64,000 nucleotides of DNA from Bacillota bacterium (GCA_023412915.1 JAEZRE010000001.1:23040-87039); one strand, 5' to 3'; counted from the first letter of the stretch, positions 9,890 through 58,025 are shown. Notes: a model not told the origin generated them from the letters alone. Numbers and translations: made by a program.

Positions 9890-9959
9890 ATTTTTTGCCT
9901 TATTTATTTGAGCAAAATGGCACAATCTATTTTGCAGATGGGCGGAGGAGAGTGAAAAG

Positions 9960-10172
9960 ATGAAGGAAAATATCCATCCGAAATACGGAGAAGCGGTTGT
10001 AAAATGTGCTTGCGGGAATACTTTTGTGACAGGTTCCACCAAAAAGGAACTGCATGTTGAAATATGCTCAAACTGTCATCCGTTCTTTACGGGAAAACAA
10101 AAGCTTGCTGATACAGGCGGACGTGTTGAGAAGTTCAAGAAGAAATATGGTATCGTAGACGAACGCGGTTGA
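9960..10172 (+). CDS. rpmE: 50S ribosomal protein L31 (Zn-ribbon type A)
   Basis: [27 protein letters not shown] is the canonical L31 sequence, with both CxxC pairs present. Confidence 0.95.
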
Positions 10173-35318: not shown

Positions 35319-35398
35319 TCCATTGCTGGTATATGTTATAAGTAAGCTTGAGAGAATTGCAGGATTTGTCTATATTTCCTGCAAAAATTAAAAATCTA

Positions 35399-35427
35399 TT
35401 GCATTACTAAAATCCATGTGCTAAAAT
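35399..35427 (+). promoter_or_regulatory. Strong candidate promoter in the asnA upstream region
   Basis: TTGCAT (35399-35404), 17-nt spacer, extended -10 TGcTAAAAT (35419-35427). Confidence 0.55.
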
Positions 35428-35480
35428 TAGAACAGTATGAAATATAACTTGTATACAGAGACGTATACGAAAATAGCCGG

Positions 35481-35532
35481 TAGGCATACTCGATGATGAG
35501 GATATATTTTCGAGGTATGCCTATTTATTTTT
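35481..35532 (+). terminator. Intrinsic terminator between the promoter and asnA (leader attenuator, or a distant terminator of the GGDEF-EAL gene)
   Basis: 13/14-bp stem TAGGCATACTCGA / TCGAGGTATGCCTA followed by TTTATTTTT. Confidence 0.7.
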
Positions 35533-35621
35533 GAAATTTTTGCGACAGAAGACTGCATATTAATTTATGAACTAGAATTATGTAAACATATATGTTATCG
35601 CAATAAAAGAGGTGAAAAATT

Positions 35622-36635
35622 ATGAAAGAGAAGTTGATTTTACCTTCCGATTATAAAACCAGTCTTGACATAATGGAAACCGAGGAGGCAATAAAGCTCC
35701 TGAAAGACTTCTTTGAAAACAATCTGTCAAAAGCGTTGAACCTGAGGAGAGTTTCGGCGCCTTTATTCGTGAAACCCGAGACGGGGCTCAACGATAACCT
35801 GAACGGCATTGAAAGGCCTGTGGCTTTTGACGTTAAAGGCTTCAACGGAGGTACTGTCGAGGTCGTACAATCCCTTGCCAAGTGGAAGCGTATGGCGCTG
35901 AAACGCTATGGATTCAGGGTGGGCAGGGGTTTGTGCACCGATATGTATGCCATACGCAGGGACGAAGAACTGGATAACCTGAGTTCCGTCTACGTCGACC
36001 AATGGGACTGGGAGAAGGTAATCAGAAAAGAGAATAGAGATACCGAAACCTTGTTAAAAACCGTATCCAGCATATACGATGTCTTCAAAAGGGCCGAGAG
36101 CTATATCTGCAGCGTTTATCCAAAGCTTTCGAAAATGCTCCCGGATAAGATCTTTATCATCACCGCGCAGGAGCTTGAAGACCTGTATCCGGGGCTAACG
36201 CCAAAACAGAGGGAAGAAGCGATAACGAGGGAGAAGAAAGCCGTATTCCTGATGAAGATAGGCGGGCTGCTCAAATCAGGAATAAAGCATGACGAACGGG
36301 CTCCCGACTACGACGATTGGGAGCTGAACGGAGACATAATTTTCTGGTACCCCATATTGAATAAACCATTTGAGATATCTTCCATGGGAATCAGGGTGGA
36401 TGAGTTTTCACTCGTAAAACAGCTAAAGACAGCAGGCTGTGAGGACCGTTTGAACATGAAATTCCACAGGGACCTGATCGAAGGAAAATTGCCGTATACC
36501 ATAGGCGGCGGGATCGGCCAGTCCAGATTGTTCATGTTTCTGCTGAACAAGGCTCATATCGGCGAAGTACAGGCTTCGGTGTGGCCGGAGGACGTTGTGG
36601 AGGCCTGTGCGGACGCAAATATTGCAATACTTTGA
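35622..36635 (+). CDS. asnA: Aspartate--ammonia ligase (asparagine synthetase A)
   Basis: 337 aa with AsnA-specific motifs (RVSAPLFV, LNGIERPV, QWDWEKVI, GGGIGQSRL). Confidence 0.93.
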   Translation: MKEKLILPSDYKTSLDIMETEEAIKLLKDFFENNLSKALNLRRVSAPLFVKPETGLNDNLNGIERPVAFDVKGFNGGTVEVVQSLAKWKRMALKRYGFRVGRGLCTDMYAIRRDEELDNLSSVYVDQWDWEKVIRKENRDTETLLKTVSSIYDVFKRAESYICSVYPKLSKMLPDKIFIITAQELEDLYPGLTPKQREEAITREKKAVFLMKIGGLLKSGIKHDERAPDYDDWELNGDIIFWYPILNKPFEISSMGIRVDEFSLVKQLKTAGCEDRLNMKFHRDLIEGKLPYTIGGGIGQSRLFMFLLNKAHIGEVQASVWPEDVVEACADANIAIL

Positions 36636-36709
36636 CATTTTATCGGGCGATGCATGGAACGGATGCGAGGTAATAGAAGCTATCAAACCGCATATAAATA
36701 AGATAGACT

Positions 36710-36745
36710 AAATGCATAATAAAATGTTATGCATTTTTTAATTTT
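36710..36745 (+). terminator. Intrinsic terminator after asnA
   Basis: Stem AAATGCATAA / TTATGCATTT followed by a T-rich run. Confidence 0.7.
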
Positions 36746-36753
36746 GCGGGGGT

Positions 36754-37122
36754 GTGGTTTTGGGCAGGTACAGGCTTGCTGCAATATATTTTCTGGCAAT
36801 ACTGTTTGCGCTGTCTCTGACGCAGATTTTTATTGATTCGCAAACAGGAACTTCAACACATGCCAGTACACAGGCGGTAAAAAGGACGTATACGATATTT
36901 GTCGAAATAGAGGATAAAACTTTATATCTGCTCGAAAATGGCAAATGCATAAAGGAATACAGGATAGCGTCCGGAATGTCCGGCTTGCCTTCGCCTTTGG
37001 GCTGCTGGAAGATAGTCGAAAAAGGCGACTGGGGCGAAGGCTTTGGGGGCAGATGGATGGGGCTTGACGTACCTTGGGGGACATTCGGTTTTGGAACACT
37101 GTTTAGAATCCAGGCTCTTTAA
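36754..37122 (+). pseudogene. L,D-transpeptidase (YkuD family), 5' fragment interrupted at codon 108
   Basis: Membrane anchor plus ..GLPSPLGCWKIVEKGDWGEGFGGRWMGLDVPW. After 37076 the frame runs into element DNA (GTFGFGTLFRIQAL*). The catalytic HG..SHGCIR motif is missing. Confidence 0.85.
37066..37099. other. attL (B arm - TG - P' arm)
   Basis: GACGTACCT-TG-GGGG-ACATTCGGTTTTGGAACAC. The central TG is at 37075-37076. The P' arm at 37081-37099 is an inverted repeat of 48452-48470. Confidence 0.7.
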
Positions 37123-38728
37123 ATTTATAACGTATTTCTATTTTCTTATTTTCGTAAATATCAATTCTGTCTATAAGCTTTTGTAAAAGGATTTTATCCG
37201 GTTCATCAAGTCTCAGCAATTCCATGGCGAGCTTCCTTAAGCCTTGGCCATCTTTTACCGACTCATTATGCTTCTGTTTTCTGACGGAGAGTTTCGAGAG
37301 TTTAGTATTCAGCTGCTCTCTTTCTTCATTATATTCTTTGGACAGATTGATAAAGTCCTGCTCTGCTATGACACCCTTCAGTTTGTCCTCGTAGAGATTC
37401 CTGATTATCCTTTTTATTTCGGTCAGCCGGTCGCCTGCGGCTGATATGTCGTTTTCCAATCCTGTACTGTTGTTTTTATGCAGGTGTTTTTCTGCGAGAT
37501 CAGCAAGTCTGCCTTGATCCAGCGACACCCTGGAGATTCTAATCAAATCTGAAATGACAAGAGCTTCGAGATCCTTTTCCAATACCGCATGCCTTGTACA
37601 GACCTTCTGCTTCCTATAACGCTTGTACTTAGAGCAGATAACATAGCCGTATCCCGAAGGAGTTTTTGTGTATGTCATCTTTTCTCCACAATCGGCACAA
37701 TATAAAAGACCCGAGAGTATATGAGGGTATCGCTTTTCGTATTCCACCATGCGGCCGTTGTTGTGTATCATCTGCTGTACCAGGTCAAAGGTTTCCTGGA
37801 CCACTATTGCCTCATGGGTATTCGGTACTATTACCCAAGCCTGCCTCGGCATGTTTATCAGCTTATCGACCTTGTAATTGACCTTCTGGCATCTGCGCTG
37901 TGTAATGCTCCCGCAATATGTCGGCTTGGTGAGTATATACTTTATCGTGTCACAATTCCACATGCCCAAATGCGATTTGGGATTCCTGTAATTCGTTCTA
38001 TTGCTTTTGTACACTGCGGGGCTTAAAATGTGCTCACTATTGAGAATATCCGCTATCGCGGAGTATGATTTTCCCTGAAGAAACAGGTCGAAAATCCGCC
38101 TTACGACGGCGGAGGTTTCTTCATTGATCTTTAGCTTGTGTTTGTCGTTCGGATCCTTATAATAGCCATATGGAGCGAAGGAGCCGATGAATTCGCCATT
38201 TTCCCTCTTTCTGTCGATAACCGATCTGACCTTTTTTGAAATATCCTTTGCATACCAGTCATTCATGATGGATTTGAAAGGCCCAATGTCATTTGAGGGG
38301 CAATCCCCGGCATAGGTGTCGATCCCGTCGAGAAGGGCAATAAACCGGATCTTTCGTTCGGGAAAATACTTTTCCAGATAATGCCCTGTGACAATATAAT
38401 CCCGGCCAAGCCTGCTCAAATCCTTTGTGATAACTGTGTTAATCCTTTTACTTTCAATATCCGCAAGCATTCTCTTGAAATCCGGTCTGTTAAAGTTAGT
38501 GCCGCTGTAGCCGTCGTCGGCGTATATTTCGACAAGCTTCCAGCCTTGATCGGCAACATACTTTGTCAACAGCTCTTTTTGGTTCAAGATACTTTCAGAG
38601 TTTACATTATCCTTTTCCTCGTCTTCCCTGGACAATCTTAAATAAATACCCACTCTGGAAGTTTGGCTGCCATAAAAGGATGAATAGTTTCCCGAGGCGT
38701 AAATCATCTGATTCCTACCTTTTCCCAA
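37103..38728 (-). CDS. Large serine recombinase (resolvase/invertase N-domain, recombinase domain, Zn-ribbon, coiled coil)
   Basis: Catalytic motif VGIYLRLSREDE..SESILNQ, resolvase core DLSRLGRD, Zn-ribbon CADCGEKM..C..C, and a long C-terminal coiled coil. The more likely start is the ATG at 38707 (MIYASG..), which follows an AAGGTAGGA RBS. Confidence 0.9.
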   Translation of the reverse strand: MGKGRNQMIYASGNYSSFYGSQTSRVGIYLRLSREDEEKDNVNSESILNQKELLTKYVADQGWKLVEIYADDGYSGTNFNRPDFKRMLADIESKRINTVITKDLSRLGRDYIVTGHYLEKYFPERKIRFIALLDGIDTYAGDCPSNDIGPFKSIMNDWYAKDISKKVRSVIDRKRENGEFIGSFAPYGYYKDPNDKHKLKINEETSAVVRRIFDLFLQGKSYSAIADILNSEHILSPAVYKSNRTNYRNPKSHLGMWNCDTIKYILTKPTYCGSITQRRCQKVNYKVDKLINMPRQAWVIVPNTHEAIVVQETFDLVQQMIHNNGRMVEYEKRYPHILSGLLYCADCGEKMTYTKTPSGYGYVICSKYKRYRKQKVCTRHAVLEKDLEALVISDLIRISRVSLDQGRLADLAEKHLHKNNSTGLENDISAAGDRLTEIKRIIRNLYEDKLKGVIAEQDFINLSKEYNEEREQLNTKLSKLSVRKQKHNESVKDGQGLRKLAMELLRLDEPDKILLQKLIDRIDIYENKKIEIRYKFKEPGF

Positions 38729-38854
38729 TTACTTCTCAGCTGTTTGCGTTAAAACAATCTTCAAATATTCTTCAATCAGCTCCTGAAAGGATTTGCCCTC
38801 ATCGTTGAAAATTGAAATTACGGCGACTTCCGATGTATCTTTATTCGGATGCAT
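38729..38854 (-). CDS. Small ORF (41 aa) immediately upstream of the recombinase gene
   Basis: MHPNKDTSEVAVISIFNDEGKSFQELIEEYLKIVLTQTAEK. Its stop codon abuts the recombinase RBS. It is below the track cut-off and no family was recognised. Confidence 0.3.
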   Translation of the reverse strand: MHPNKDTSEVAVISIFNDEGKSFQELIEEYLKIVLTQTAEK

Positions 38855-39013
38855 AAACAATACCTCGCTGATAATAATTATTCAGATGAAGCTTGTCTAT
38901 ATTACATTTGCATATTTTACATAAGCCGCCATAAAGCTGAATACTATCAAATCAGGGGAAGGCACTTTATTTTTTACGACTTCAATTGCAGCCGGACAAA
39001 TAAACAGTATTAA

Positions 39014-39042
39014 TTGAAAATACATATATATTAGGATACAAT
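39014..39042 (+). promoter_or_regulatory. Candidate promoter for the RR-HK-PBP operon
   Basis: TTGAAA (39014-39019), 17-nt spacer, TACAAT (39037-39042). Confidence 0.45.
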
Positions 39043-39106
39043 AGGTATTGATTGGCACGGGTCTATCTGTTTTTAAAGCCATTTTCAGGACATAGGGGGT
39101 AATTTT

Positions 39107-40792
39107 GTGTACAAGCTCCTATTGGTCGATGATGAAAACGACGTCAGAGAAGGGATTCTGCAGGAAATTGACTGGAAGGCTAATGGCTTTGAGGTCGTTG
39201 GGACAGCGGAAAACGGGAAGGAAGCCTATGACCTGGTAGAGAGGTTTGTCCCTGATATAGTTGTCACCGATATCAAAATGCCATTCATGGATGGGCTTGC
39301 CTTGACTGAACTGATCCGCCGGAGATATCCCGCCGTCTGTATCGTCATACTGACCGGCTTTGATGAATTCGAATTCGCACAGAAAGCAATCAGGCTTCAT
39401 GTAGATGAATATGTACTTAAGCCTTTTTCCTCGCAGGAACTGCTCCAGGTATTGGTAAGGATCAGACAGATGAAGGATGAGGAGGCTGCTGAAAAGAGGA
39501 ATATCCTGAAGCTCCGGGAGCTCTATAATGAAAGCCTTCCGGTGCTTAAAGCCAACTTTCTCACTCTTTTGATCACTAAAAAGCTGGAGGAAGCGGAAAT
39601 CCTTGATAAATCGTGCAAACTGGATATTGATCTATGTAAAAAAGGTTTTCTGGTGTCGGTTATCAGGCTTGATCTGATGTGGCTCAATTCGCCTGAAGAG
39701 AACCCGGTGGTCGAACAGGGAGAGGGAACCGTTGCGGAAAACCGGGATGAGGACGGGGAGCTGAACCTGTTTGCCGTTCTGAACATTGTTGAGGAGCTTG
39801 TGGAAAAACACGCTCTGGGAATTGTTTTCATCCATAACGGCGATATCGTTGTATTAAGCCTGAACGAAGCAGAGGAAAGCGAGGCGTTTATTGCTCTGAC
39901 CATTAACGCTCTGGAAGAAATCCGCTACTCTGTGGAAAAGTATCTGGGACTGTCAGTAACAGCCGGTGTGGGTACGTTCTGCGATTCTGTTACCGGTATC
40001 AGCAATTCTTACAAGGATGCGCGTCTGGCACTTGATTACAAAGTATTGCTGGGAAACAACAGGATAATATTGATCAGCGATCTCGAAGTTCGCAATGCCA
40101 AAAAGGCTGTTTTCGATGAATTGAAGGAAGATATCCTCGCCTACTGCATAAAGGTAGGTGCGTTTTCTGAAGTCACGAAACTCATAGATACGGTTTTCAA
40201 CGACCTTGCCGAAGCCGGTGCTTCCTTCAAGGAATGCCAGCTATATCTGATGGAAATCGTGACGTCTCTCTTGAAAATTGCTAAAAACTCCAACGTTGAT
40301 ATCAATTGTATCATAGATGACAGTTTCAAATTGTTCCCGGAGATCGGCCGCTTTAACAATCTGCAGGAGGCAAGGAACTGGACTCTTGGCGTCTGTAACA
40401 GAATAGCGGACATCATCGCCAGCAACAGGCAGGATAATTTCAGACAAATAGTAGCCAATGCGAAGGAGTTTACCAGAAACCATTTCCATGAGAGCGATCT
40501 TACGATCAACAAGGTATGCGGGGAGCTGCACATCAGTCCCAGTTACTTCTGTACCATATTCAAAAAAGAGACTAAATCCACCTATCTGGCTTATCTCGTT
40601 CAGCTTAGAATGGATACCGCACGGGAGCTGCTGCGGATGACCGACCTTAAATCCTTTGAGATCGCCGAACGGATAGGATTTTCCGACGCGAATTATTTCA
40701 GTAACAGCTTTAAGAAATATACGGGGTATTCTCCTTCCGAATTCAGAAATAGAAGTCGAGGTCAAAGTGTTGGGGAAAGAGCATTTTATTAA
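39107..40792 (+). CDS. Response regulator with an AraC-type HTH output (YesN-like)
   Basis: REC domain (LLLVDDE..TDIKMPFMDG..KP) and a C-terminal AraC HTH (ANYFSNSFKKYTGYSPSEFR). Confidence 0.9.
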   Translation: MYKLLLVDDENDVREGILQEIDWKANGFEVVGTAENGKEAYDLVERFVPDIVVTDIKMPFMDGLALTELIRRRYPAVCIVILTGFDEFEFAQKAIRLHVDEYVLKPFSSQELLQVLVRIRQMKDEEAAEKRNILKLRELYNESLPVLKANFLTLLITKKLEEAEILDKSCKLDIDLCKKGFLVSVIRLDLMWLNSPEENPVVEQGEGTVAENRDEDGELNLFAVLNIVEELVEKHALGIVFIHNGDIVVLSLNEAEESEAFIALTINALEEIRYSVEKYLGLSVTAGVGTFCDSVTGISNSYKDARLALDYKVLLGNNRIILISDLEVRNAKKAVFDELKEDILAYCIKVGAFSEVTKLIDTVFNDLAEAGASFKECQLYLMEIVTSLLKIAKNSNVDINCIIDDSFKLFPEIGRFNNLQEARNWTLGVCNRIADIIASNRQDNFRQIVANAKEFTRNHFHESDLTINKVCGELHISPSYFCTIFKKETKSTYLAYLVQLRMDTARELLRMTDLKSFEIAERIGFSDANYFSNSFKKYTGYSPSEFRNRSRGQSVGERAFY

Positions 40793-42566
40793 AACACTGT
40801 TAAAACCGTTCCATACGTTGTTTGAATTTCTGAGAGTCAGGAGCATACAGTTCTTCATCTCTTCCTCCATCATGCTCATTACCCTCACCGCGATGCTTTT
40901 TGTCGGACTGATGCTGTACAGCAAGTTCAATAAATCGGCGGAACAGAACGCTATCATCAGCACCAGGCAGGTGATCGACCAGGTCAATCTGAATCTGGAT
41001 TATTATCTTCGCAGCATGATGGAGATATCGGATTCTTTGAACGACCTGATCGGATATAAGCAGGATATCGATGAGAACAGGCTGATCGAGCAGATGAATG
41101 TGATCCTCGATACGAGGAAGGATATCGTTTCCCTCGGCATATTTTCCAGAGAAGGCAAGGTTGTAGTCGGCTCGCCCTCATATAAAATGAAGGACGTAAA
41201 CATCACCATACAGGATTGGTTCAGCGAACCTGTGAACGAACCCGCAAACCTTTATTTTTCTTCACCTCATGTGCAGAATATCTTCGAAAGCCGGCATAAC
41301 TGGGTGGTTTCTCTCAGCAGGGAAGTCGCCTTCTATAAAAACAATGCAAAGGAACAAGGCGTACTGCTCGTCGATATGAATTTCAGCTCTCTTGACCAGC
41401 TCTGCCAGAAGGCAAAGCTTGGTAAAAAGGGGTACATCTATCTTGTGGATTCCAGCGGAAATATCGTGTATCACCCGCAGCAGCAGCTGATCAACGCCGG
41501 ACTGAAATCGGAAAATGTGGAAGAAGTGATGAATCACATCTCCGGAATCTATTTCGATAAATTCAACGGTCAGAATCGCATGATCACGATCCAAACCGTC
41601 AATTTCTGCAGGTGGAGAATCGTTGGTATAGCCTACATGGACGAAATCGTTACAACTAAAAAGGAGATCGGTGTTTTTATCTTTTGGACCTTCCTTTTCG
41701 GCACGGTGTTTGTATTCTTCATCTCCGCCTTTCTTTCCGCAAAGATATCCCAGCCGATAAAAGCTCTTGAAAAATCCATGAAAAAGGTGGAAGAGGGCAT
41801 GCTGGACATCGACTTCGGTGTGAAGGGCGAGACGGAAGTCGCAAAACTGGCAGGTACGTATAAAATGATGCTGACCAGAATCCGGCATCTTATGGACCAG
41901 ATCGTGGTTGAGCAGGAATCCAAGCGGAACGCGGAATTTGAGGTGCTGCAATCCCAGATAAACCCCCATTTTCTTTATAACACACTGAATTCAGTGGTCC
42001 GTATGGTGGAATGCGGAAAGAAGGAGGATGCGATCACCATGATCACTTCTCTTTCCAGACTGTTCCGTATCAGTATCAGCAAAGGCAGAAACATCATCAC
42101 CATTCAGGAGGAACTGGAGCACGCCAGCCATTACCTGACCATCCAGCAGATCCGATATAAAAACAAGTTCCAGTTTGAGATAAATTCTCAGAAAGCAGTG
42201 CTGCAATGCAGAATTATCAAGCTTATTCTTCAGCCAATCATCGAAAACGCCATTTACCATGGAATTGAACATATGGTGGACGACGGGCAAATCAAGGTCA
42301 CTGCGGAGATATTCAACGGAAAGCTGCTGCTCCAGGTGTCGGATAACGGGGCGGGGATAAGGCGCGAGGTGTTGGAAAACATCCTTGCCGCGCGAATGGA
42401 AAACAAAGAGGGCAGGGGAGTAGGCGTAAAAAACGTGCATGATAGGATACAGCTTTATTATGGCAAGGAGTATGGTTTGGAATTCGAAAGCGAGGTTGAC
42501 GTCGGTACAACCGTTAAAATCTGGCTCCCTTATGTGGGAGAGCTCGCAGCCGGGGGTGCGGAATGA
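40767..42566 (+). CDS. Sensor histidine kinase (YesM/LytS-like: two TM helices, HAMP, His_kinase, HATPase)
   Basis: LQSQINPHFLYNTLNS H-box, N box IIENAIYHG, G boxes DNGAGI and GVGVKNV. Confidence 0.9.
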   Translation: MLGKEHFIKTLLKPFHTLFEFLRVRSIQFFISSSIMLITLTAMLFVGLMLYSKFNKSAEQNAIISTRQVIDQVNLNLDYYLRSMMEISDSLNDLIGYKQDIDENRLIEQMNVILDTRKDIVSLGIFSREGKVVVGSPSYKMKDVNITIQDWFSEPVNEPANLYFSSPHVQNIFESRHNWVVSLSREVAFYKNNAKEQGVLLVDMNFSSLDQLCQKAKLGKKGYIYLVDSSGNIVYHPQQQLINAGLKSENVEEVMNHISGIYFDKFNGQNRMITIQTVNFCRWRIVGIAYMDEIVTTKKEIGVFIFWTFLFGTVFVFFISAFLSAKISQPIKALEKSMKKVEEGMLDIDFGVKGETEVAKLAGTYKMMLTRIRHLMDQIVVEQESKRNAEFEVLQSQINPHFLYNTLNSVVRMVECGKKEDAITMITSLSRLFRISISKGRNIITIQEELEHASHYLTIQQIRYKNKFQFEINSQKAVLQCRIIKLILQPIIENAIYHGIEHMVDDGQIKVTAEIFNGKLLLQVSDNGAGIRREVLENILAARMENKEGRGVGVKNVHDRIQLYYGKEYGLEFESEVDVGTTVKIWLPYVGELAAGGAE

Positions 42567-43543
42567 ACAAGAAGGGAAAGCTGCTCGTCCTGTTCCTTGT
42601 TATTATGATTTTGCCCAGTATTAGCGGCTGTCAGAGGAATCTCAACCTCGAAGGCACCACAAAAAATATTGCGCTCATCGTAAGAATGAATAACGGGTAT
42701 TACTGGGGTTCCGTAAAACTGGGCGCCGATGCGGCGGCTAACGAATTCAATGTGAATGTGCGTTATACTGCTCCGGAGGACGAGGAGGATGTGGAAGGTC
42801 AGATCCGTTTAGTCAACTCGGAGCTGGATCAGAAGGTGGACGCGTTGATCCTTGCGGCAAGCGATTACAACGCGCTTGTCGAAGTGACGGAAAGAGCCGC
42901 CGGCATGCATATTCCAGTCATTATCATCGATTCGGAAGTAAATACCGACAAGATCGACAGCTATATCGCCACGGACAATAACGACGCCGGAATCAAGGCA
43001 GGCAAGCAGCTTGTCAAGCTTCTTGCAGGAAGCGAAGGGGAGAAAAAGGTAGGCATTATGAACTTCGTAAAGGGTACCAGGAATGCCGAGCAGAGGGAAG
43101 AAGGCCTGCTGAAGGCTATATCCGCCTACCCCGGCATCAAGGTAGTAGCGAAGGAATACTGTTCTTCCGATAAAAAGCTGGCGTCCGAGCTGACACAAAA
43201 GATGATCCGGGATAACAATGATATCCGCGCCATAGTTGCGTTGAACGCCATATCTTCGGAGGGGGTCGCAGAAGCGGTTTCACAGTTGGACCTGGCTGGA
43301 AAGGTGAACATCATCGCTTTTGACAGCACGCCCAATGAGATCGATTATATGGAAAAAGGCGTCATACAGGTATTGATCACTCAGAATCCGTTCAATATGG
43401 GATATCTGAGTGTGAAATACGCGGTCGACGCGATGAATGGGGTAAGCATCGGCAAGTACTATGATACGGGGTCGGAAATAATCAATAAGGACAATATGTA
43501 TCTGCCGGAAAACCAGAGGCTTCTATTCCCGTTCATTAAATAG
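42563..43543 (+). CDS. Periplasmic sugar-binding protein, probable sensor partner of the HK (three-component system)
   Basis: Lipoprotein signal (PSISGC) and a type I PBP fold (LILAASDY, IIDSEV, IIAFDSTP). It is translationally coupled to the HK gene by an ATGA overlap. Confidence 0.8.
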   Translation: MNKKGKLLVLFLVIMILPSISGCQRNLNLEGTTKNIALIVRMNNGYYWGSVKLGADAAANEFNVNVRYTAPEDEEDVEGQIRLVNSELDQKVDALILAASDYNALVEVTERAAGMHIPVIIIDSEVNTDKIDSYIATDNNDAGIKAGKQLVKLLAGSEGEKKVGIMNFVKGTRNAEQREEGLLKAISAYPGIKVVAKEYCSSDKKLASELTQKMIRDNNDIRAIVALNAISSEGVAEAVSQLDLAGKVNIIAFDSTPNEIDYMEKGVIQVLITQNPFNMGYLSVKYAVDAMNGVSIGKYYDTGSEIINKDNMYLPENQRLLFPFIK

Positions 43544-43602
43544 CATATCAGACATCGGATGTAAAATGTGGCAGAACACAAAGCAGTGCAGGAGGCGCCG
43601 AA

Positions 43603-44607
43603 ATGAGGAGAATCCTATCGGTATTTCTAATGGCGTGTTTGCTGGGTTGCGCGGCAGCCGGATGCGGAAGCGGCGCCGGACCCCGCAACGTACGAATTGG
43701 CTGTGCGATCTACAAATTTGACGACACGTTCATGACTACTGTGAGAAACTATATATCGGAGGCTGCCGTAGGGAAGGCTGAGGTGGAAATCGTAGACAGC
43801 CAGAATTCGCAGCAAATCCAGAACGACAAGATAGATCTGTTCATTGCAAAGAAGGTGAAGGCGCTGGCCATCAACCCGGTGGACCGGACGACGGCGGGCG
43901 TTATGCTTGAAAAGGCGAGGAAGGCAAATATCCCCATCGTTTTTTTCAACAAGGAACCGCTGGCTGATGACATGAAGAAATGGGACAAGGTTTTTTATGT
44001 GGGGGCCAAGGCTGAAGAATCCGGCGCTATGCAGGGAGAACTGGTGGCGAACTATTGGAAAACCCACCCGGAAGCGGACATAAACAAGGATGGCATCATG
44101 CAATATGTCATGCTGAAGGGTGAGCCTGCACATCAGGATGCGGAGCTTCGGACGAAGTATTCGGTACAGACGGTTCAGGACGCCGGCATCGAGGTGGAAA
44201 AGCTGGCGGAGGATAACGCCGACTGGGACCGGGTAAAAGGCCAGGAAAAGATGTCGGCATTTCTTGCGACAAATGGTGACAGGATTGAAGTGGTATTTTC
44301 CAACAACGATGATATGGCGCTGGGTGCGATCGAAGCGCTCAAAGCGGCGGGATATTTCAGGGACGGCAGATATATTCCGGTTGTAGGGATAGATGCAATC
44401 ACTCCGGCTCTTCAGGCGATAAAAGAAGGGACGCTTCTGGGAACGGTGTTCAACGACGGTGAAAATCAGGGCCGGGCAACCTTCAATCTCGCGCTTGCCC
44501 TGGCTCAGGGGAAACCGGCCAGCAAGGAAACCGTCGGATATGAAATCACGGATGGGAAATATATTTGGGTACCGTACAAAAAAGTAACGAGGAACGATAT
44601 TCAGTAG
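43603..44607 (+). CDS. mglB: Galactose/glucose (methyl-galactoside) ABC transporter substrate-binding lipoprotein, copy 1
   Basis: Lipobox LLGCAAAGC. IGCAIYKFDDTFMTTVRN..VFFNKEP..YYVGA..LKGEPAHQDAELR aligns along its whole length with E. coli MglB. Confidence 0.85.
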   Translation: MRRILSVFLMACLLGCAAAGCGSGAGPRNVRIGCAIYKFDDTFMTTVRNYISEAAVGKAEVEIVDSQNSQQIQNDKIDLFIAKKVKALAINPVDRTTAGVMLEKARKANIPIVFFNKEPLADDMKKWDKVFYVGAKAEESGAMQGELVANYWKTHPEADINKDGIMQYVMLKGEPAHQDAELRTKYSVQTVQDAGIEVEKLAEDNADWDRVKGQEKMSAFLATNGDRIEVVFSNNDDMALGAIEALKAAGYFRDGRYIPVVGIDAITPALQAIKEGTLLGTVFNDGENQGRATFNLALALAQGKPASKETVGYEITDGKYIWVPYKKVTRNDIQ

Positions 44608-44709
44608 GATTTTCAAGATCATCTCGCAGGATTTTATATTCTACATCCCGCAAACCTGAGATATTATGAAAGCACCCCGGTACTATAATAAATTTTGGAG
44701 GTGCTTTCT

Positions 44710-45723
44710 GTGAAAAAGTTCGTTTCCTTTCTTCTTGTAGCACTATTGATGGTAAGCATGTGCGCGGCCTGCACACCGGCAGACGGCGGGAAACCTTCCA
44801 TCGGCGTAACCATTTACAAATTCGACGACACATTCATGACTTCCGTACGTAACACAATCGCAGCGGAGGGGAAAGACCAGGCAAACGTTGAAATCGCTGA
44901 CTGTCAGAATTCCCAGCCGACCTGTAATGACAAGGTTGACATGTTTATTACCAAGAAGGTAAAATCTCTTGCCATCAACATGGTCGACCGTACCGCATCA
45001 GGCGTTATTATCGACAAAGCCAAGGCCAAGAACATTCCGGTCGTGTTCTTCAACCGGCAGCCGTTGGAAGAAGACATGGCAAAATGGGATAAGGTTTATT
45101 ATGTAGGCGCCCATGCCGAAGAATCAGGAGTCATGGAAGGCCAGATGCTGGTCGACTATTGGAAGGCACACAAGGAGATGGATGTAAACGGGGATGGCGT
45201 GATGCAGTATGTTATGATCAAGGGCGAACCCGGACATCAGGATTCTGAAGCACGTGCCAAATATTCTGTCGAGACCATAGAAAAAGCTGGGATCAAGACG
45301 GAAAAACTGGCTGAAGACAATGCAAACTGGGATCGTGTAAAGGGTCAGGAAAAGATGGCTGCATTCCTTACCGCCAACAGCGGTAAAATCGAAGCTGTTA
45401 TCGCCTGCAACGACGATATGGCCCTCGGCGCCATCGAAGCCTTGAAGGCTGCAGGTTACTTCACCGGCGACAAATACATGCCTGTGGTAGGTGTTGACGC
45501 CACAGCTCCCGGCCTCGCGGCAATCAAAGACGGCACGCTCCTTGGAACGGCCTATAATGACGGTATAAACCAGGGTAAAGCAACATATAAGATAGCATAC
45601 CTTCTTGCCAAAGGCGAAAAGCTTACCAAGGAGAATGTAGGGTATGACATAGTGGACGGCAAGTATGTCTGGGTACCGTATAAGGGTATTACAAAGGCAA
45701 ACATGAGTGAAGTTCCGCAATAA
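44710..45723 (+). CDS. mglB: Galactose/glucose ABC transporter substrate-binding lipoprotein, copy 2
   Basis: GTG start after a GGAGG RBS, and lipobox SMCAAC. IGVTIYKFDDTFMTSVRN..VFFNRQP..IKGEPGHQDSEAR is a tandem paralogue of the preceding gene. Confidence 0.85.
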   Translation: MKKFVSFLLVALLMVSMCAACTPADGGKPSIGVTIYKFDDTFMTSVRNTIAAEGKDQANVEIADCQNSQPTCNDKVDMFITKKVKSLAINMVDRTASGVIIDKAKAKNIPVVFFNRQPLEEDMAKWDKVYYVGAHAEESGVMEGQMLVDYWKAHKEMDVNGDGVMQYVMIKGEPGHQDSEARAKYSVETIEKAGIKTEKLAEDNANWDRVKGQEKMAAFLTANSGKIEAVIACNDDMALGAIEALKAAGYFTGDKYMPVVGVDATAPGLAAIKDGTLLGTAYNDGINQGKATYKIAYLLAKGEKLTKENVGYDIVDGKYVWVPYKGITKANMSEVPQ

Positions 45724-45773
45724 GAAGCAACAGTCCGGAATCAGAATCCGGTAGCATTTTTGGATAAATCCAT

Positions 45774-45804
45774 GGGGGGTTTTATACCCCCCGGGATTTC
45801 TTTT
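45774..45804 (+). terminator. Intercistronic stem-loop / partial terminator after the binding-protein genes
   Basis: GGGGGG-TTTTATA-CCCCCC followed by GGGATTTCTTTT. Confidence 0.45.
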
Positions 45805-45839
45805 ATGACTGAATAAGAGTAGAACACAGGGGGAGCAAG

Positions 45840-47357
45840 ATGGATGAAAATGAGTTTATTTTGGAAATGAATCATATTTCTAAGGAATTTCCCGGTGTGA
45901 AAGCTCTCAATGACGTAACTGTCAAACTCCGCGCAGGCACGGTTCATGCACTGATGGGCGAAAATGGAGCTGGGAAATCGACACTGATGAAATGTCTTTT
46001 TGGCATCTACATCCAGGATTCAGGCGAAATCATTCTGGATGGGAAAAAGATGGAGATCAATGATTCCAAAACTGCGCTGAAGCTTGGGATTTCCATGATT
46101 CATCAGGAGCTTCAGTCCATACCGTACCGCAGCGTTATGGAAAACATATGGCTGGGACGGTTTCCTCTGAAAAGATTTGGCCCGATCAAACTGGTTAATC
46201 ACAAAAAAATGTACAATGATACGGAAAAGTTACTTAAGGACCTCAACATGGATATCGATCCTGCAGCCATTGTCAACAAGCTTTCCGTTTCAAAGGTACA
46301 GTCAATGGAGATTGCAAAGGCGACATCCATGAATGCAAAGGTCATTATCATGGACGAACCGACCTCCTCTCTGACGGAGAATGAAGTCGAACATTTGTTT
46401 AGAATCATACGCGATTTGAAAAGACAAGGCGTCGCGATTATTTACATATCGCATAAAATTGAAGAAATCCTGCAGATCTCGGATGAGGTAACGATAATGC
46501 GGGATGGAATGTGCGTCGGGACATGGCCGTCCTCGGAGCTGACAATGGACTTGATCATTTCCAGAATGGTAGGGCGTGACCTGATTCACAGATTTCCAGA
46601 GCGTTCGAATATACCGTCGGATGTCGTGCTGAAGGTGGAAAATCTGACCTCCCCTTATCCGAAGTGCTTCAGGGATGTTTCCTTCGACCTGCGCAGAGGG
46701 GAGATACTTGGCGTCGGAGGACTGGTTGGAGCTCAAAGAACGGAGCTGATAGAGGCGATCTTCGGACTCAGGAGCATTGAGTCCGGGAGGATTCTGCTAA
46801 ACGGCCGGGAGGTTAAAATCAAATCGCCGCTGGAGGCTATCAAGATGAAAATAGCTCTGCTGACCGAGGAACGCAGGGCCAGCGGTATTTTCCCACTGCT
46901 TTCCGTACTGGAGAATACGGTCATCGCGAACCTGGCAGGTTATGTGAAACGGCTGTTTCTGCTCGATGACAGGGGAAGACTGGCCGACACGCTGAAAAGC
47001 ATAGAAATGCTCCGTATAAAAACTCCCTCCTTCAAGGCGCTTATCAAGGATTTGTCCGGCGGTAACCAGCAAAAGGTCCTCTTTGCCAGATGGTTGCTGA
47101 CCCAACCGGATATATTGCTGCTTGACGAGCCGACACGCGGAATCGATGTCGGGGCGAAGTTTGAAATCTATACGATTATCGCTAATCTGGCCATGCAAGG
47201 CAAGAGCATTATAATGATCTCTTCTGAAATGCCTGAATTGCTCGGCATGTCGGATAGGATCATGGTTATGTGTGAAGGAAGGCTCTCTGGAGTTGTAAAC
47301 GGAAAGGAAACTAGCCAGGAAGAGATCATGCAGCTTGCGAGTCAATTTATGGCATAG
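45840..47357 (+). CDS. mglA: Sugar ABC transporter ATPase with duplicated ABC domains (MglA-like)
   Basis: Two nucleotide-binding domains: GENGAGKST / LSVSKVQ in the first, and LSGGNQQK / LLLDEPTRGID in the second. Confidence 0.9.
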   Translation: MDENEFILEMNHISKEFPGVKALNDVTVKLRAGTVHALMGENGAGKSTLMKCLFGIYIQDSGEIILDGKKMEINDSKTALKLGISMIHQELQSIPYRSVMENIWLGRFPLKRFGPIKLVNHKKMYNDTEKLLKDLNMDIDPAAIVNKLSVSKVQSMEIAKATSMNAKVIIMDEPTSSLTENEVEHLFRIIRDLKRQGVAIIYISHKIEEILQISDEVTIMRDGMCVGTWPSSELTMDLIISRMVGRDLIHRFPERSNIPSDVVLKVENLTSPYPKCFRDVSFDLRRGEILGVGGLVGAQRTELIEAIFGLRSIESGRILLNGREVKIKSPLEAIKMKIALLTEERRASGIFPLLSVLENTVIANLAGYVKRLFLLDDRGRLADTLKSIEMLRIKTPSFKALIKDLSGGNQQKVLFARWLLTQPDILLLDEPTRGIDVGAKFEIYTIIANLAMQGKSIIMISSEMPELLGMSDRIMVMCEGRLSGVVNGKETSQEEIMQLASQFMA

Positions 47358-47376
47358 GAAAGGTAGGAATCACGCA

Positions 47377-48393
47377 ATGGACGATTTAAGAACGATGAAT
47401 GGTTCCAAAAGATTAATAGAGTTAATAAAACAAAACGCGATATTTGTGAGTCTTGTAGTACTGGTCCTGATCATCATAGCGGTAAATCCGGCTTTCTTGA
47501 GTTTTACGGTCCTGCGTGACATCCTGATCCAGGTATCGACAAGAATCATTATCGCGCTGGGCGCCGCAATCGTTTTAATCACGGCGGGATGCGATCTTTC
47601 AGCCGGACGTATGGTGGGAATCGCCGCGGTATTATCAGGGTCTCTTCTTCAGACACAGGAATATGCCAGAAGGTTTTATCCGAATATGCAGGACCTGCCT
47701 ATATGGCTTCCGATTGTGATCGGTATCGTAGCGTGTTTGCTTTTTGGCCTTCTGAACGGTTTTTTTGTATCCCGGTTCAGTGTCCCTCCATTTATAGCTA
47801 CTTTGGCGACCACCTGTATTCTTTACGGTGCAAATTCACTGTATGTCAGCATCAAACCGAACGAATCCCAACCAATTGCCGGGTATCGTCCCGATTTTAC
47901 CTTTTTGGGGTCCGGGTATGTTTTGGGTATTCCCGTCATCATCATGATTGCTGTTGCCGTCACCCTGATAACATGGGTGCTGCTTAACAAGACCAGGTTT
48001 GGAAAGAATATTTATGCAGTAGGCGGTAACGTCACCGCTGCCAAGGTATCGGGAATCAATGTGAATCGTACCTTACTGGGTGTATATGCATATGCCGGAG
48101 CACTTTATGGACTTGCCGGCGTTTTGGAATCCGCGAGGACCGGAGGAGCGAACAACAACTACGGTGTGGGCTATGAACTGGATGCCATTGCGGCTTCTGT
48201 CGTAGGCGGAGTTTCTCTGATGGGAGGCATCGGCACTGTTCCGGGTATTATAATCGGTGTTCTGATCTTCGGCGTATTGAATTACGGCTTGACCTTTGTA
48301 GGAATGAATCCATATTGGCAGCAGATCATCAAGGGCGCAATCATTGTTGTTGCTGTTGCATTTGATATACGGAAGTATCTTACGAAAAAATAA
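47377..48393 (+). CDS. mglC: Sugar ABC transporter permease (MglC/RbsC family)
   Basis: Polytopic protein with GGIDLSAGR-like TAGCDLSAGRMVG and AVGGNVTAAKVSGINV motifs. The start was set at the ATG at 47377, after an AAAGGTAGGA RBS. Confidence 0.88.
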   Translation: MDDLRTMNGSKRLIELIKQNAIFVSLVVLVLIIIAVNPAFLSFTVLRDILIQVSTRIIIALGAAIVLITAGCDLSAGRMVGIAAVLSGSLLQTQEYARRFYPNMQDLPIWLPIVIGIVACLLFGLLNGFFVSRFSVPPFIATLATTCILYGANSLYVSIKPNESQPIAGYRPDFTFLGSGYVLGIPVIIMIAVAVTLITWVLLNKTRFGKNIYAVGGNVTAAKVSGINVNRTLLGVYAYAGALYGLAGVLESARTGGANNNYGVGYELDAIAASVVGGVSLMGGIGTVPGIIIGVLIFGVLNYGLTFVGMNPYWQQIIKGAIIVVAVAFDIRKYLTKK

Positions 48394-48451
48394 AGCGGAG
48401 CTGCGCCGGGATCCGGTAATTAGTATGAGCCGGTGGTCTCCGTTTTCGGGC

Positions 48452-48483
48452 GTGTTCCAAAACGGTATGCAGGGTGGGGTACC
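48452..48483. other. attR (P arm - TG - B' arm)
   Basis: GTGTTCCAAAACGGTATGC-AGGG-TG-GGGTACC, with the central TG at 48475-48476. Confidence 0.7.
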
Positions 48484-48861
48484 TACGGTATCCATGGTAC
48501 GCTTGCCGACGGCTCGATAGGCTCGGCATCGAGCCACGGCTGCATACGGATGTTCAACGAAGATGTGGCCGAGCTCTACAACCTTGTGCCCATAGGAACG
48601 GAGGTTGTCATTGTAAACGGACAGTTCGGGCCTTTTGGCAGGGGTTTTTCAGAGATAAATCCGGGCGATCGGGGCTCTGACGTATATGCCATACAGCAGA
48701 GGCTCAGGCAGCTGGGATATTATAGCGGTCCGTTCGACGGAATATATGAGGATGACCTTAAAAAGGCGCTGCACAAATTCCAGAGAGCCAATGGGCTGAA
48801 AGCGCAGAACACGATCACATACGAATGCTGGCTGAAGATGGATTTCAAGGAGTTTGAGTAA
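48475..48861 (+). pseudogene. L,D-transpeptidase (YkuD family), 3' fragment with the catalytic motif and a peptidoglycan-binding domain
   Basis: [28 protein letters not shown] (catalytic His/Cys) followed by a PG_binding_1-like repeat ([28 protein letters not shown]). It is in frame with the 5' fragment when joined at the TG. The track's GTG at 48433 lies in element DNA and has no RBS. Confidence 0.85.
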
Positions 48862-48922
48862 GGCTCGGGCGGTCCAGGCAGATATAGGTATCCGCCTGGA
48901 TACCTTCTATCTGTCTGAACCG

Positions 48923-48941
48923 CCTGTCCCCGACAGGTTTT
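48923..48941. terminator. Short terminator hairpin between the convergent ldt and FAD-oxidoreductase genes
   Basis: CCTGTC-CCC-GACAGG followed by TTTT. A longer imperfect hairpin lies just upstream at 48884-48918. Confidence 0.45.
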
Positions 48942-48983
48942 ATAATACATGATCAATATATTATAAAGCCTTGTCCGTAACAA

Positions 48984-50357
48984 TTATTCAAGACATACGT
49001 TTTGCTCACGCAACGTTTTGCGGAGCTCCGAAACATCGATTTCCCGTACGCTTACGCTCGCTTTTGCCGCGAGAGCCGCAGCCGTGCCGACAGCCTGGCC
49101 CTGAGCCATACAGGAACCTGTATTTCTTGTCGACATGTGGGCTTCCCAGGTTGAAGTGATCAAGCGGCCAGCTACAAGCATGCCATCCAGTCCCTTTGGT
49201 ATGAATGCGCGGTACGGAATGCCGTAATATCCGGCATCCTTTATCATGATCCTCGGAGCACAGTCGTGGAATCCGTAGAGCATGACTTCATCGTCGAATC
49301 TGGCACAGTTGACAATCTCGTCAAGCGTCATTTCATGCTCACATTCAATTATTCTGGTAAGACGTACGCCTACGGATATCGGAGTCCAGTTGACATAAGC
49401 GTGCTCAAAACCCGGAACGTGCTTGATAAGCATGGCTGCAAGCTTCATAGCCTGCCTGCGTATTTTGATCTCCGCGTTTGACAGCTCGACCGTATTTGTC
49501 GTATCGACGCTTCGCAAATTGCAGGAGTTGATGTACGTGAAATTATTCTCATGCAGTGCAAATCCCAGCGGGCCCCACATGCCGTTAGATTCCATGAACT
49601 CTTTGAAAACCGGAAGCTTCTTCAGTTCAAATCCGAGGCGAATTATATCGTCGACCTCACTGCCCTTGTTTCCGCGGATCAGCTGGTTAATCATGCCGTT
49701 TTCCTCTAGGAATCTGACGAGTTTCGGCATATCGACGTTGCACATCCCAAAAGGAAAACCTACGTTGGTCTTGTCATGACGTTTTACAAAGCTCGCTCCC
49801 GCATATGCGGCAACATCGCCGTCGCCCGTCGTATCGATGACCGTTTTTGCCAGGATGGCTTCGCGGCCTGATTTGCCTTCGATAATGATGCCTTTGACAA
49901 TATTGCCTTCTTTTATCGCGTCAACGACCATTACGTGGAGAAGTACCTGGACTCCAGCCTCCTCCAGCATCTGAAAGATTACGTCCTTGAATATCTCCCA
50001 GTCGATAAGGGTTATTCTTGAATCATAGCTGCCGCCCTTATCCTGTTCAAGATGTCCCAGACAGCCGCCGTTTGCGATCATACGATCGACGATCTCCTCG
50101 GGGATACCTTTGATCACTTGCTTTTCCTTAGCTCCCGGGAATGCTTTGTAAAGATTGAAGAAGCTGTGAATCGGTCCTGCGCCGTTAATAAGCGTACCGC
50201 CTAAAAAGCCGAAACGATCGGCAAGTATGGTACGAGCCCCGTTTCTGGCGGCAGCTATGGCCGCAACTACGCCCGCTGTACCGCCGCCGGCGATTACGAC
50301 GTCGCATTCGTAATTGACCGGCGTTTTTCTATTTTCAATAATAAACTTATCGCCCAT
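48984..50357 (-). CDS. FAD-dependent oxidoreductase, cytoplasmic (paralogue of 3753-5111)
   Basis: CDVVIAGGGTAGVVAAIAAARNG. It shares the blocks IDTTGDGDVAAYAGA, VPGFEHA and a C-terminal GR..S.......R....CMAQGQAVGTAAA with its paralogue. Confidence 0.75.
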   Translation of the reverse strand: MGDKFIIENRKTPVNYECDVVIAGGGTAGVVAAIAAARNGARTILADRFGFLGGTLINGAGPIHSFFNLYKAFPGAKEKQVIKGIPEEIVDRMIANGGCLGHLEQDKGGSYDSRITLIDWEIFKDVIFQMLEEAGVQVLLHVMVVDAIKEGNIVKGIIIEGKSGREAILAKTVIDTTGDGDVAAYAGASFVKRHDKTNVGFPFGMCNVDMPKLVRFLEENGMINQLIRGNKGSEVDDIIRLGFELKKLPVFKEFMESNGMWGPLGFALHENNFTYINSCNLRSVDTTNTVELSNAEIKIRRQAMKLAAMLIKHVPGFEHAYVNWTPISVGVRLTRIIECEHEMTLDEIVNCARFDDEVMLYGFHDCAPRIMIKDAGYYGIPYRAFIPKGLDGMLVAGRLITSTWEAHMSTRNTGSCMAQGQAVGTAAALAAKASVSVREIDVSELRKTLREQNVCLE

Positions 50358-50441
50358 AATATAACCTCCCTGAGCTAAAGAGGACTAGTCCCGATATATT
50401 TCTTTGACCTCTGCCCCCGACATATGATTTTATTAATCTTA

Positions 50442-51911: not shown

Positions 51912-52166
51912 AGTAATTATCTTCCTTTCATGCGTTTTTTTGTCCGAGCTTTCTGATAATTTCTTATAACCGTAAAAACCGTCAATAACGTGATACTAGC
52001 ACAAATACCGTAGTTTTTAAATATGGTTTTTTGTCAACATTTTTACCTCTCTTATGAAATGTCGAATTTAATTAACAAATATGTTGATACTTTTTAGTAC
52101 TAGGCGGACGATTTATGCATGAATATAATTTTATTCGAAATAAAAAATTTGCGGGGGGTTACATTA

Positions 52167-53591: not shown

Positions 53592-53627
53592 ACGTCTGGT
53601 TTAAAACGTAAAGTCGAATTCAGCAGT

Positions 53628-53672
53628 GCCTCTAAATCAAAGAACTCCAAATATAGTCCGTGATTTAGAGGC
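53628..53672 (+). other. Intercistronic 12-bp stem-loop between the SBP and permease genes
   Basis: GCCTCTAAATCA (53628-53639) pairs with TGATTTAGAGGC (53661-53672). The T tract is weak, so this is more likely an mRNA-stabilising or attenuating hairpin than a full terminator. Confidence 0.5.
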
Positions 53673-53719
53673 ATTTGCTCTTATTCGTCCCGATTTCTCA
53701 ATAAAAAGGCGGTGTTCTT

Positions 53720-54643: not shown

Positions 54644-54664
54644 AGACGAAAGGGGAAAAGCGAA

Positions 54665-55513: not shown

Positions 55514-55712
55514 AGCTACAACTATTTACGCATAATTCCGGTTTAACCGCGATCTGACCGTTGTTGAAGGCTAAAGCTGACGCTTTGCTGTGATCATCGG
55601 TCTTTTTGCCATTGTAATATTTACCGGGCCAGGGTTTATGGATTTATCCTAGTTATCGGTTTATAATTAAAACAATGTTTTCAGGCGCAGACCGCCTGGT
55701 GTTAAGGAACCG

Positions 55713-57930: not shown

Positions 57931-58025
57931 TACAGGCATGGGCTCTCGTGCGATAATAAATAACCGGCGGTATGACTGTCGGTCATCCGCCGGTATAGTA
58001 CCTCAGACTGCTTCAAAAACTTGAA

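Follow-up and report, generated by a model that had tools for sequence, protein, structure and literature searches.

An 11.4-kb large serine recombinase element splits an L,D-transpeptidase gene in a Bacillota bacterium, with in-frame rejoining predicted upon excision

Results

A split L,D-transpeptidase gene and its intact relatives

The window analyzed here is a 64,000-nucleotide stretch of DNA from a Bacillota bacterium (GCA_023412915.1 JAEZRE010000001.1:23040-87039), with positions counted from its first letter. It contains a YkuD-type L,D-transpeptidase (LDT) gene that lies in two parts on either side of an 11.4-kb element coding for a large serine recombinase (LSR). We are highly confident that the element splits a single LDT gene and that its precise excision would rejoin the gene in frame. 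This arrangement was proposed in an initial annotation made from the sequence alone, and the positions and sequences given there are borne out. The genes and sites at the junctions are as follows.

36754..37076, + strand: LDT 5' half, whose product comprises an N-terminal membrane anchor and roughly the leading 60% of the YkuD domain, up to ...GLDVPW
37050..37100, no strand: attL, with TG at 37075-37076, element-side arm GGGGACATTCGGTTTTGGAACAC, and inverted repeat at 37082-37099
37103..38728, - strand: LSR gene (541 aa), with Resolvase, Recombinase, and Zn_ribbon_recom domains (PF00239, PF07508, PF13408)
48450..48500, no strand: attR, with TG at 48475-48476, element-side arm GTGTTCCAAAACGGTATGCAGGG, and inverted repeat at 48452-48469
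48477..48861, + strand: LDT 3' half, coding for GTYGIHGT...SHGCIRM (catalytic His and Cys) and a PG_binding_1 domain

The left open reading frame (ORF; 36754..37122, + strand) reads ...GEGFGGRWMGLDVPW and continues through 14 element codons before it ends, still within the element, at the stop at 37122; the TTG at 36760 is probably the true LDT start. The right ORF (48433..48861, + strand) codes for WGTYGIHGT...SHGCIRM plus the C-terminal peptidoglycan-binding domain. The sequence TGGGG is found at 37075 and again at 48475, a distance of exactly 11,400 bp, and within the conserved VPWG motif it is the TG of the Trp codon that is interrupted (37075/76 and 48475/76). Joining at TGGGG yields a 708-nt ORF coding for a 235-aa LDT, without a frame shift, which spans positions 2 to 146 of the 146 in Pfam YkuD (E 1e-20), includes PG_binding_1 (E 6e-14), and has Bacillus subtilis YkuD as its closest solved structure (E 2e-17). 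The catalytic motif YGIHGT...SHGCIRM is complete only in the joined protein. It had been remarked that this motif lies solely in the distal half and that this half has no ribosome-binding site of its own; both points hold, and there is no start codon in a sensible context either. Only a catalytically dead N-terminal LDT stub can be made in the integrated state.

Relatives of the joined LDT were sought among 5.8 billion proteins, and hundreds of intact proteins of 233 to 236 aa align with it from end to end (99 to 100% coverage of the joined ORF; best identity, 87%), with VPWG.YGIHGT invariant across 11 aligned sequences. The 87%-identical protein, from another species, is encoded downstream of ilvB-ilvN-ilvC-leuA-leuA-small ORF, and on the window's own contig the split LDT is preceded by these genes in the same order. 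Because of this shared synteny and the end-to-end alignment with intact relatives, the two fragments are halves of one orthologue, and the possibility raised in the initial annotation that they are remnants of different genes is not upheld. Compared with the intact orthologue, the ratio of nonsynonymous to synonymous divergence (dN/dS) is 0.086 for the 5' half and 0.078 for the 3' half, at a dS of ~0.8; such low values fit continued selection on both halves.

Attachment sites, crossover, and junctions

The rebuilt attP, GTGTTCCAAAAC-GGTATGCAGGG-TG-GGGGACATTCG-GTTTTGGAACAC, is palindromic, with 12-bp perfect inverted arms centered exactly on the T|G of TGGGG, and the rebuilt attB, GTACCT-TG-GGGTAC, is a quasi-palindrome about the same TG. 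The predicted rejoined junctions read GACGTACCTTGGGGTACCTACGG (attB) and GGTATGCAGGGTGGGGGACATTCGG (attP). Serine integrases cut at a central dinucleotide. In three related elements described below, the sequence common to attP and attB is reduced to TG alone: L090 and L253 (...CCCTG|CCCTACG), and L257, with attB GTCCCC-TG-GGGGCA and attP GCAGGG-TG-CCCTAC. Together these place the crossover at the TG of the Trp codon.

The same two junctions are present in loci from the separate samples ERZ27268923 and SRR13358422 (three more of the five contigs are grouped as similar). Both loci are 100% identical to the window and therefore do not represent independent strains. The initial annotation looked to related genomes for an uninterrupted orthologue with an empty site; the orthologue was recovered in another species, and no same-species empty site was found in the collections. 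A search through the neighboring AsnA protein returned only contigs identical to the window, all with the element present, and since the best intact LDT is only 87% identical and belongs to another species, no empty site is known for the window species.

The recombinase and its cargo

The placement of a 541-aa LSR at the element edge agrees with the earlier description, with three Pfam domains and a stop codon 26 nt from the crossover; databases call a 534-aa protein from an alternative start. It has the conserved catalytic motif YLRLSRED, an alignment of 26 sequences shows no variation at R31 and S33, and the protein matches the PHROG 95 integrase (E 5e-106). Its best-scoring named NCBIfam models are CcrB and XisF, both far below their cutoffs. 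The LSR gene lies likewise at the edge in seven related elements.

The remainder of the element is taken up largely by two blocks of cargo, a regulatory part (39107..43543) and an Mgl-type galactose/glucose ATP-binding cassette (ABC) transporter (43603..48393, + strand), and the regulator genes are divergent from the recombinase operon.

39107-40792, + strand: AraC-type response regulator
40767-42566, + strand: sensor kinase with Cache, HAMP, and His_kinase domains
42563-43543, + strand: sugar-binding-protein-like sensor
43603-44607 and 44695-45723, + strand: two MglB-like binding proteins (350 and 338 bits; best match, below the cutoff of 420)
45840-47357, + strand: MglA (715 bits; best match, below the cutoff of 828)
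47335-48393, + strand: MglC (415 bits, over the cutoff of 386)

The two MglB-like genes (43603-45723) are in tandem, 1,104 bp apart, and repeat segments between them (families D1 and D3) are 74 to 81% identical at the DNA level and therefore reflect an old tandem duplication. Domain and profile searches revealed no phage structural, packaging, lysis, lysogeny, or replication genes among the element ORFs, and no relaxase, coupling-protein, or type IV secretion domains, with no oriT search made. The GC content of the element is the same as that of its flanks, and base composition fails to set it apart.

A candidate directionality factor

Two features lie immediately upstream of the LSR gene.

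38729..38854, - strand: acidic 41-aa ORF (MHPNKDTSEVAVISIFNDEGKSFQELIEEYLKIVLTQTAEK), directly upstream of the LSR gene and conserved
38871..38899, - strand: sigma-70-like promoter match TAGACA-17-TATTAT (10 of 12 positions; a consensus match only), upstream of the small ORF and the LSR gene

The 41-aa product contains the motif ...GKSFQELIEE..., and related small ORFs of 35 to 60 aa directly precede the LSR gene in all 45 loci in which it is 40 to 55% identical to that of the window, and in 132 of the 233 loci fetched overall; in gut Clostridia the family core reads ...VVHC.Y....KSL.ELLEESFRLYL.... No match to the small ORF was found in Pfam, PHROGs, or NCBIfam. In B. subtilis the skin factor Skr is encoded by a 64-aa ORF that immediately precedes spoIVCA and overlaps it (PMC6957869), and the directionality factors known from intervening elements are small, acidic proteins (PMC10747680). 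Because of its skr-like position and these shared properties, we propose the 41-aa ORF as the best candidate for a recombination directionality factor.

Nine of the related loci, not including the window, have a hairpin ending in a conserved AGGTAGTTATC between the small ORF and the LSR start, for example at L087:1810-1869, L089 ~9900-9990, L255 ~9000-9060, L008 ~1180-1260, and L173:4219-4295. It corresponds to no Rfam family, and an Rfam scan of the relatives gave spurious miRNA matches only; it could be an operator or an attenuator. In L173, a phage fragment described below, a 17-bp perfect inverted copy also lies just past attP (5942-5958), so that the LSR-attP module is bracketed.

Related elements at the same LDT codon

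Genomic context was examined for seven close LSR homologues (50 to 56% identity), and six of them lie beside a split LDT.

P0121 (L087/L088): window-like, with the LDT N-half on the strand opposite the LSR
P0124 (L089, the isolate genome of Alkaliphilus transvaalensis): LSR and then LDT C-half, on the same strand
P0126 (L255): LDT N-half ...NVPWG, followed by element sequence TLDLEHI and a stop
P0127 (L090-L092): LDT N-half, with upstream synteny as in the window
P0128 (L253): LDT N-half, with upstream synteny as in the window
P0137 (L257-L259, Acetivibrio sp.): both LDT halves visible

The seventh, P0151, is located in another recombinase gene and not in an LDT. LSR-profile scans of GTDB, metagenomes, and IMG/VR gave mostly distant matches (35 to 45% identity), and only two loci among the matches listed, L008 and L173, are directly useful. 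The first, from GTDB (48% LSR identity), has an LDT C-half 25 bp past the LSR stop codon. At least seven other LSR lineages (48 to 56% identity; L087, L089, L090, L253, L255, L257, and L008) thus cut the same LDT codon, and the visible LDT halves are free of stop codons in all eight lineages. Both element orientations occur there, with TG or CA at the attP center when read along the recombinase gene.

The cargo is different in every LDT-splitting element, and includes Prim-Pol, HNH, and McrBC-like proteins with a methyltransferase in L089, ankyrin and leucine-rich-repeat proteins in L091, RsgI and an ABC exporter in L255, and a single AAA_14/DUF4143 ATPase in L257. The last is a complete element of 3,633 bp, the removal of which gives an in-frame 255-aa LDT (...GLNVPWGQYGIHGT...SHGCIRM), and its attP is also symmetric about T|G.

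The second useful locus, the IMG/VR phage fragment L173, codes for large and small terminase subunits, an LSR (50% identity), and the small ORF. An unintegrated attP lies right past the LSR stop codon and reads GTGTTCCAAAAC-TTATATCCCC-TG-GGGTGGTTAGT-GTTTGGAACAC; its arms are nearly those of the window and its core, CCCCTGGGG, matches the LDT site. The recombinase module is therefore of phage origin and was once mobile. Among annotated phages and plasmids, no LSR is more than 37% identical to that of the window.

The locus L254:10001-12790 (GCA_942493145.1, OW818679.1) codes for an LSR 50% identical to that of the window and is inserted in another recombinase gene, of which a 349-aa remnant without the catalytic domain follows the LSR. 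This nested array adjoins spoIVA, and the genome retains an intact LDT (P0108).

Sister recombinases at spore-envelope genes

More distant sister LSRs (42 to 45% identity) abut fragments of cotJC, cotJB, PdaB-like, and SpoIID-like genes. The cotJC gene is cut at GGPDGEL, with an N-fragment at L007:5551-5710 (Mn_catalase positions 1 to 38) and a C-fragment at L011:9955-10580. The cotJB gene is cut near its 3' end, with the N side at L031:11599-12220, where CotJA was identified adjacent, and the C side at L022:4933-5630 and L099:3692-4380, where ...NQGWPWEGG is followed by cotJC. C-terminal parts of PdaB-like deacetylases abut LSRs at L093:3316-3960 and L015:6248-6860 (TIGR02764 positions 13 to 191), and at L012:11530-12290 a SpoIID C terminus fused to a CwlD-like amidase does so. 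In a rough neighbor-joining tree most LDT-targeting LSRs group together, with L254 and L173 inside the group and L008 just outside, and the cotJ- and pdaB-targeting LSRs form neighboring groups. We found no earlier report of split cotJ targets in literature on cotJC and intervening recombinases that was covered in part only; the part covered deals with sigK elements alone.

The reading frame of cotJC in L022 shifts by 1 nt where GGPDGE is encoded (5010-5100; ...QYGRT and a stop, versus GGPDGEIE in the next frame), which may be an assembly error or real decay.

The LDT neighborhood

Outside the element, the locus differs from that of the 87%-identical species (L001) by extra genes on either side of the LDT. 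Upstream (33459-36635) these code for a GGDEF-EAL protein and AsnA; downstream they occupy ~9 kb (48984-58000) and include a 457-aa oxidoreductase of the flavin adenine dinucleotide-binding type, called by reading the sequence, together with several other ORFs. Beyond that stretch lie ORFs of 310 and 287 aa, sizes that match the L001 transketolase pair. Judged from this comparison, the neighborhood variation is independent of the element. Two hairpins flank the gene.

36709-36745: AT-rich hairpin (AAATGCATAA...TTATGCATTT) with a T-run, between a conserved CATATAAAT box and the LDT start
48922..48946, + strand: hairpin resembling a terminator, followed by a T-run, downstream of the LDT stop codon

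The first is absent from the leader of the intact orthologue in L001, and may be an asnA terminator or an attenuator of LDT transcription.

Discussion

A proposed role in sporulation

We lean, if only slightly, toward the view that the element is of the sporulation gene-intervening kind, with excision developmentally programmed in the mother cell. The host, a Clostridium-like bacterium, is indirectly indicated to be an endospore former by a YyaC equivalog within the 64-kb window (TIGR02841, 209 bits versus a cutoff of 85). This upholds one of two sporulation genes named in the initial annotation; the other, a SpoIIE-type phosphatase, is instead a generic PP2C-domain protein. A. transvaalensis, with a related element at the same codon, is a spore former. 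The initial annotation also noted that B. subtilis YkuD is expressed in sporulation, and ykuD is assigned to the sigma-K regulon (PMC517825). The sigma-E regulon of Clostridioides difficile includes ldtCd3, which is spore associated, and in this species the spore cortex is exclusively 3-3 cross-linked (PMC3789822, PMC11986978). A likeness to skin and SPbeta was suggested at the outset, and it is strengthened by the sister LSRs that split cotJB, cotJC, PdaB-like, and SpoIID-like genes.

An LSR placed the 11.4-kb element in the LDT gene, at the TG of the VPWG Trp codon, and recombination between attL and attR at this TG would release an 11.4-kb circle and restore an intact 235-aa LDT gene. Excision would require the recombinase and a directionality factor, for which the 41-aa ORF product is the candidate. 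During sporulation it would presumably take place in the mother cell as that cell differentiates terminally, with the LDT made nowhere else, and the spore germ line would keep the element with its sugar-uptake cargo.

Several observations weigh against a sporulation role. No excised form was found, and no intact LDT of more than 87% identity is present in the protein collection. The small ORF and LSR operon is preceded by the sigma-70-like match and by no clear sigma-E or sigma-K promoter, and a CATA-type -10 box (CATATAAAT or CATAAAATA) is found upstream of the LDT in just three of the five lineages examined. The LDT combines a membrane anchor, YkuD, and PG_binding_1, versus LysM and YkuD in B. 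subtilis YkuD. The small ORF belongs to no named family and is also seen beside the LSRs of ordinary mobile elements, so its function may be something other than directionality. A recent insertion could give equally low dN/dS in both halves. CATA-type -10 boxes also occur upstream of small ORFs in relatives, with poor spacing to -35 elements. Boxes resembling sigma-E/K or sigma-F/G sites near the LDT and small ORFs, read by eye, were inconsistent in spacing and ambiguous, and were not used.

The strongest competitor, which we nonetheless regard as less likely, is plain insertional inactivation, much as hlb or geh is knocked out by insertion in staphylococci through negative lysogenic conversion. 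An LSR island, mobile now or formerly, would use the conserved and quasi-palindromic VPWG-coding stretch of a dispensable LDT as attB, and would be excised only for transfer or loss, with no part in host development. A true phage relative with a free attP exists (L173), the cargo is unrelated from element to element, and the LSR and small-ORF unit is common in mobile elements of gut Clostridia, all of which favor such an account. The sigma-70-like promoter match and the dispensability of YkuD-type LDTs in C. difficile (PMC11986978) do as well, and neither an empty site nor a clear sporulation promoter was found. However, the nearest LSR lineages target cotJB, cotJC, PdaB-like, and SpoIID-like genes, an enrichment hardly explained by sequence preference alone, and the arrangement resembles experimentally proven cases (PMC5595907, PMC6957869). 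The visible LDT halves are intact in eight lineages, the element supplies no replacement LDT 3' end, and its composition is like that of the host, all of which weigh against simple inactivation.

A vegetative or stress-responsive switch in the style of active lysogeny, in which a signal such as envelope stress or sugar availability, perceived through the cargo kinase system, triggers excision and gives an LDT-positive, Mgl-negative subpopulation, is considerably less probable. SPbeta and the yabG element yin do excise beyond strict sporulation control (PMC4191935, PMC10747680), and the cargo codes for a sensor kinase and a regulator of its own, whose genes diverge from the recombinase operon. 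However, no link was seen between the cargo regulator and the recombinase promoter, the sister LSR targets point to sporulation, and excision in dividing cells would lose the element irreversibly because it has no replication genes.

An assembly chimera, or remnants of two LDT paralogues flanking an island by chance, is conceivable in that the window derives from a metagenome assembly, but was rejected as highly improbable given the exact in-frame join, the identical junctions in assemblies of separate samples, the equal divergence of both halves from one intact syntenic orthologue, the att palindrome located precisely at the element ends, and the recurrence of the architecture in seven further lineages.

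Wider implications

Judged by its recurrence, the combination of recombinase, small ORF, and att sites is a portable unit, found with unrelated cargo in phages and in other elements. We tentatively suggest that this one unit has spread over at least five spore-envelope genes of Clostridia, namely the LDT gene, cotJB, cotJC, a PdaB-like deacetylase gene, and a SpoIID-like gene, in phages and in phage-free cassettes. Late sporulation in this class would then be widely controlled, in modular fashion, through recombinase-driven changes to mother-cell DNA, although we consider this possible rather than probable. If it is true, arbitrary cargo, here a complete sugar-sensing and uptake regulon, would be carried by the germ line without a penalty for sporulation.

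Should excision prove developmental, as the sporulation reading predicts, the LDT would join the short list of sporulation genes under DNA-rearrangement control, and the phenomenon would reach environmental Clostridia of the cellulolytic type. The LDT family would be indicated as a mother-cell enzyme, which is relevant to the 3-3 cross-linked clostridial spore cortex. Such elements are also one recurring reason why LDT and cotJ genes are annotated as "truncated." Their serine integrases form a related set of potential use as a toolkit: the 2-bp crossover is known, attB and attP occur as natural pairs, and the 41-aa ORF product is a candidate directionality factor.

Comparison with known intervening elements

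The sporulation genes published as intervened are sigK, spsM, spoVFB, spoVR, gerE, kamA, and yabG (PMC5595907, PMC6957869, PMC10747680), and the reference class of elements used here comprises skin, SPbeta, vfbin, vrin, gin, yin, and phi3T. No link of ykuD to a serine recombinase was found in the literature searched. The absence of phage and conjugation genes, correctly noted in the initial annotation, does not set the window element apart from known examples as was claimed there, because gin is without phage genes (PMC5595907) and the cargo of skin elements is not shared beyond the recombinase (bioRxiv 10.1101/2022.02.25.481979).

Exact removal of skin (B. subtilis SpoIVCA/Skr; C. difficile CD1231/CD1234) puts sigK back in frame, as predicted here for the LDT. 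The orientation of skin varies and its members have no common cargo other than the recombinase (bioRxiv 10.1101/2022.02.25.481979), as among the relatives of the window element, and skr lies immediately upstream of the recombinase gene (PMC6957869), like the small ORF of the window. In contrast, the window target codes for a cell-wall enzyme where that of skin codes for a sigma factor, a regulon for sugar uptake takes the place of phage remnants as cargo, the directionality factor is only a candidate, and no close sequence relation to SpoIVCA is established.

The gin element in gerE of Bacillus cereus ATCC 10987 (GirC/GirX) is likewise gene-intervening and not of phage type. It codes for an LSR together with a small accessory factor, for which the 41-aa ORF is the candidate here, and its att sites have an imperfect inverted repeat around a short common core (PMC5595907), like those of the window. 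It differs in its size of 28.6 kb, its three recombinases, and its experimentally shown excision in sporulation, whereas the window element has one recombinase, another target, and a predicted excision.

SPbeta in spsM and phi3T in kamA of B. subtilis share with the window module a portable attL-int-rdf-attR unit (PMC4191935, PMC6957869), with the 41-aa ORF as the candidate rdf of the window, and in both the target gene is reconstituted by excision. Active phage relatives exist, as L173 does for the window element. SPbeta and phi3T are, however, full inducible prophages with rdf under stress and sigma-E/K promoters, whereas the window element is without phage genes.

Outside sporulation, the cassettes of the SCCmec type (staphylococcal cassette chromosome; CcrAB/CcrC) likewise consist of recombinase and cargo only, without transfer or phage genes. 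The window LSR scores 122 bits against the CcrB model, for which the cutoff is 900. Insertion of SCC at the 3' end of rlmH leaves that gene intact, and no directionality factor is required. The fdxN element is developmentally excised by the LSR XisF, with the gene needed only in a terminally differentiated cell, and there is a weak XisF match here; at 122 bits versus a cutoff of 375, the window LSR is not an XisF family member. Heterocyst elements of the fdxN type are cyanobacterial and interrupt different genes. What is new at this locus is the LDT as the target gene and the unusual cargo; the kind of element is already known, including non-phage members such as gin.

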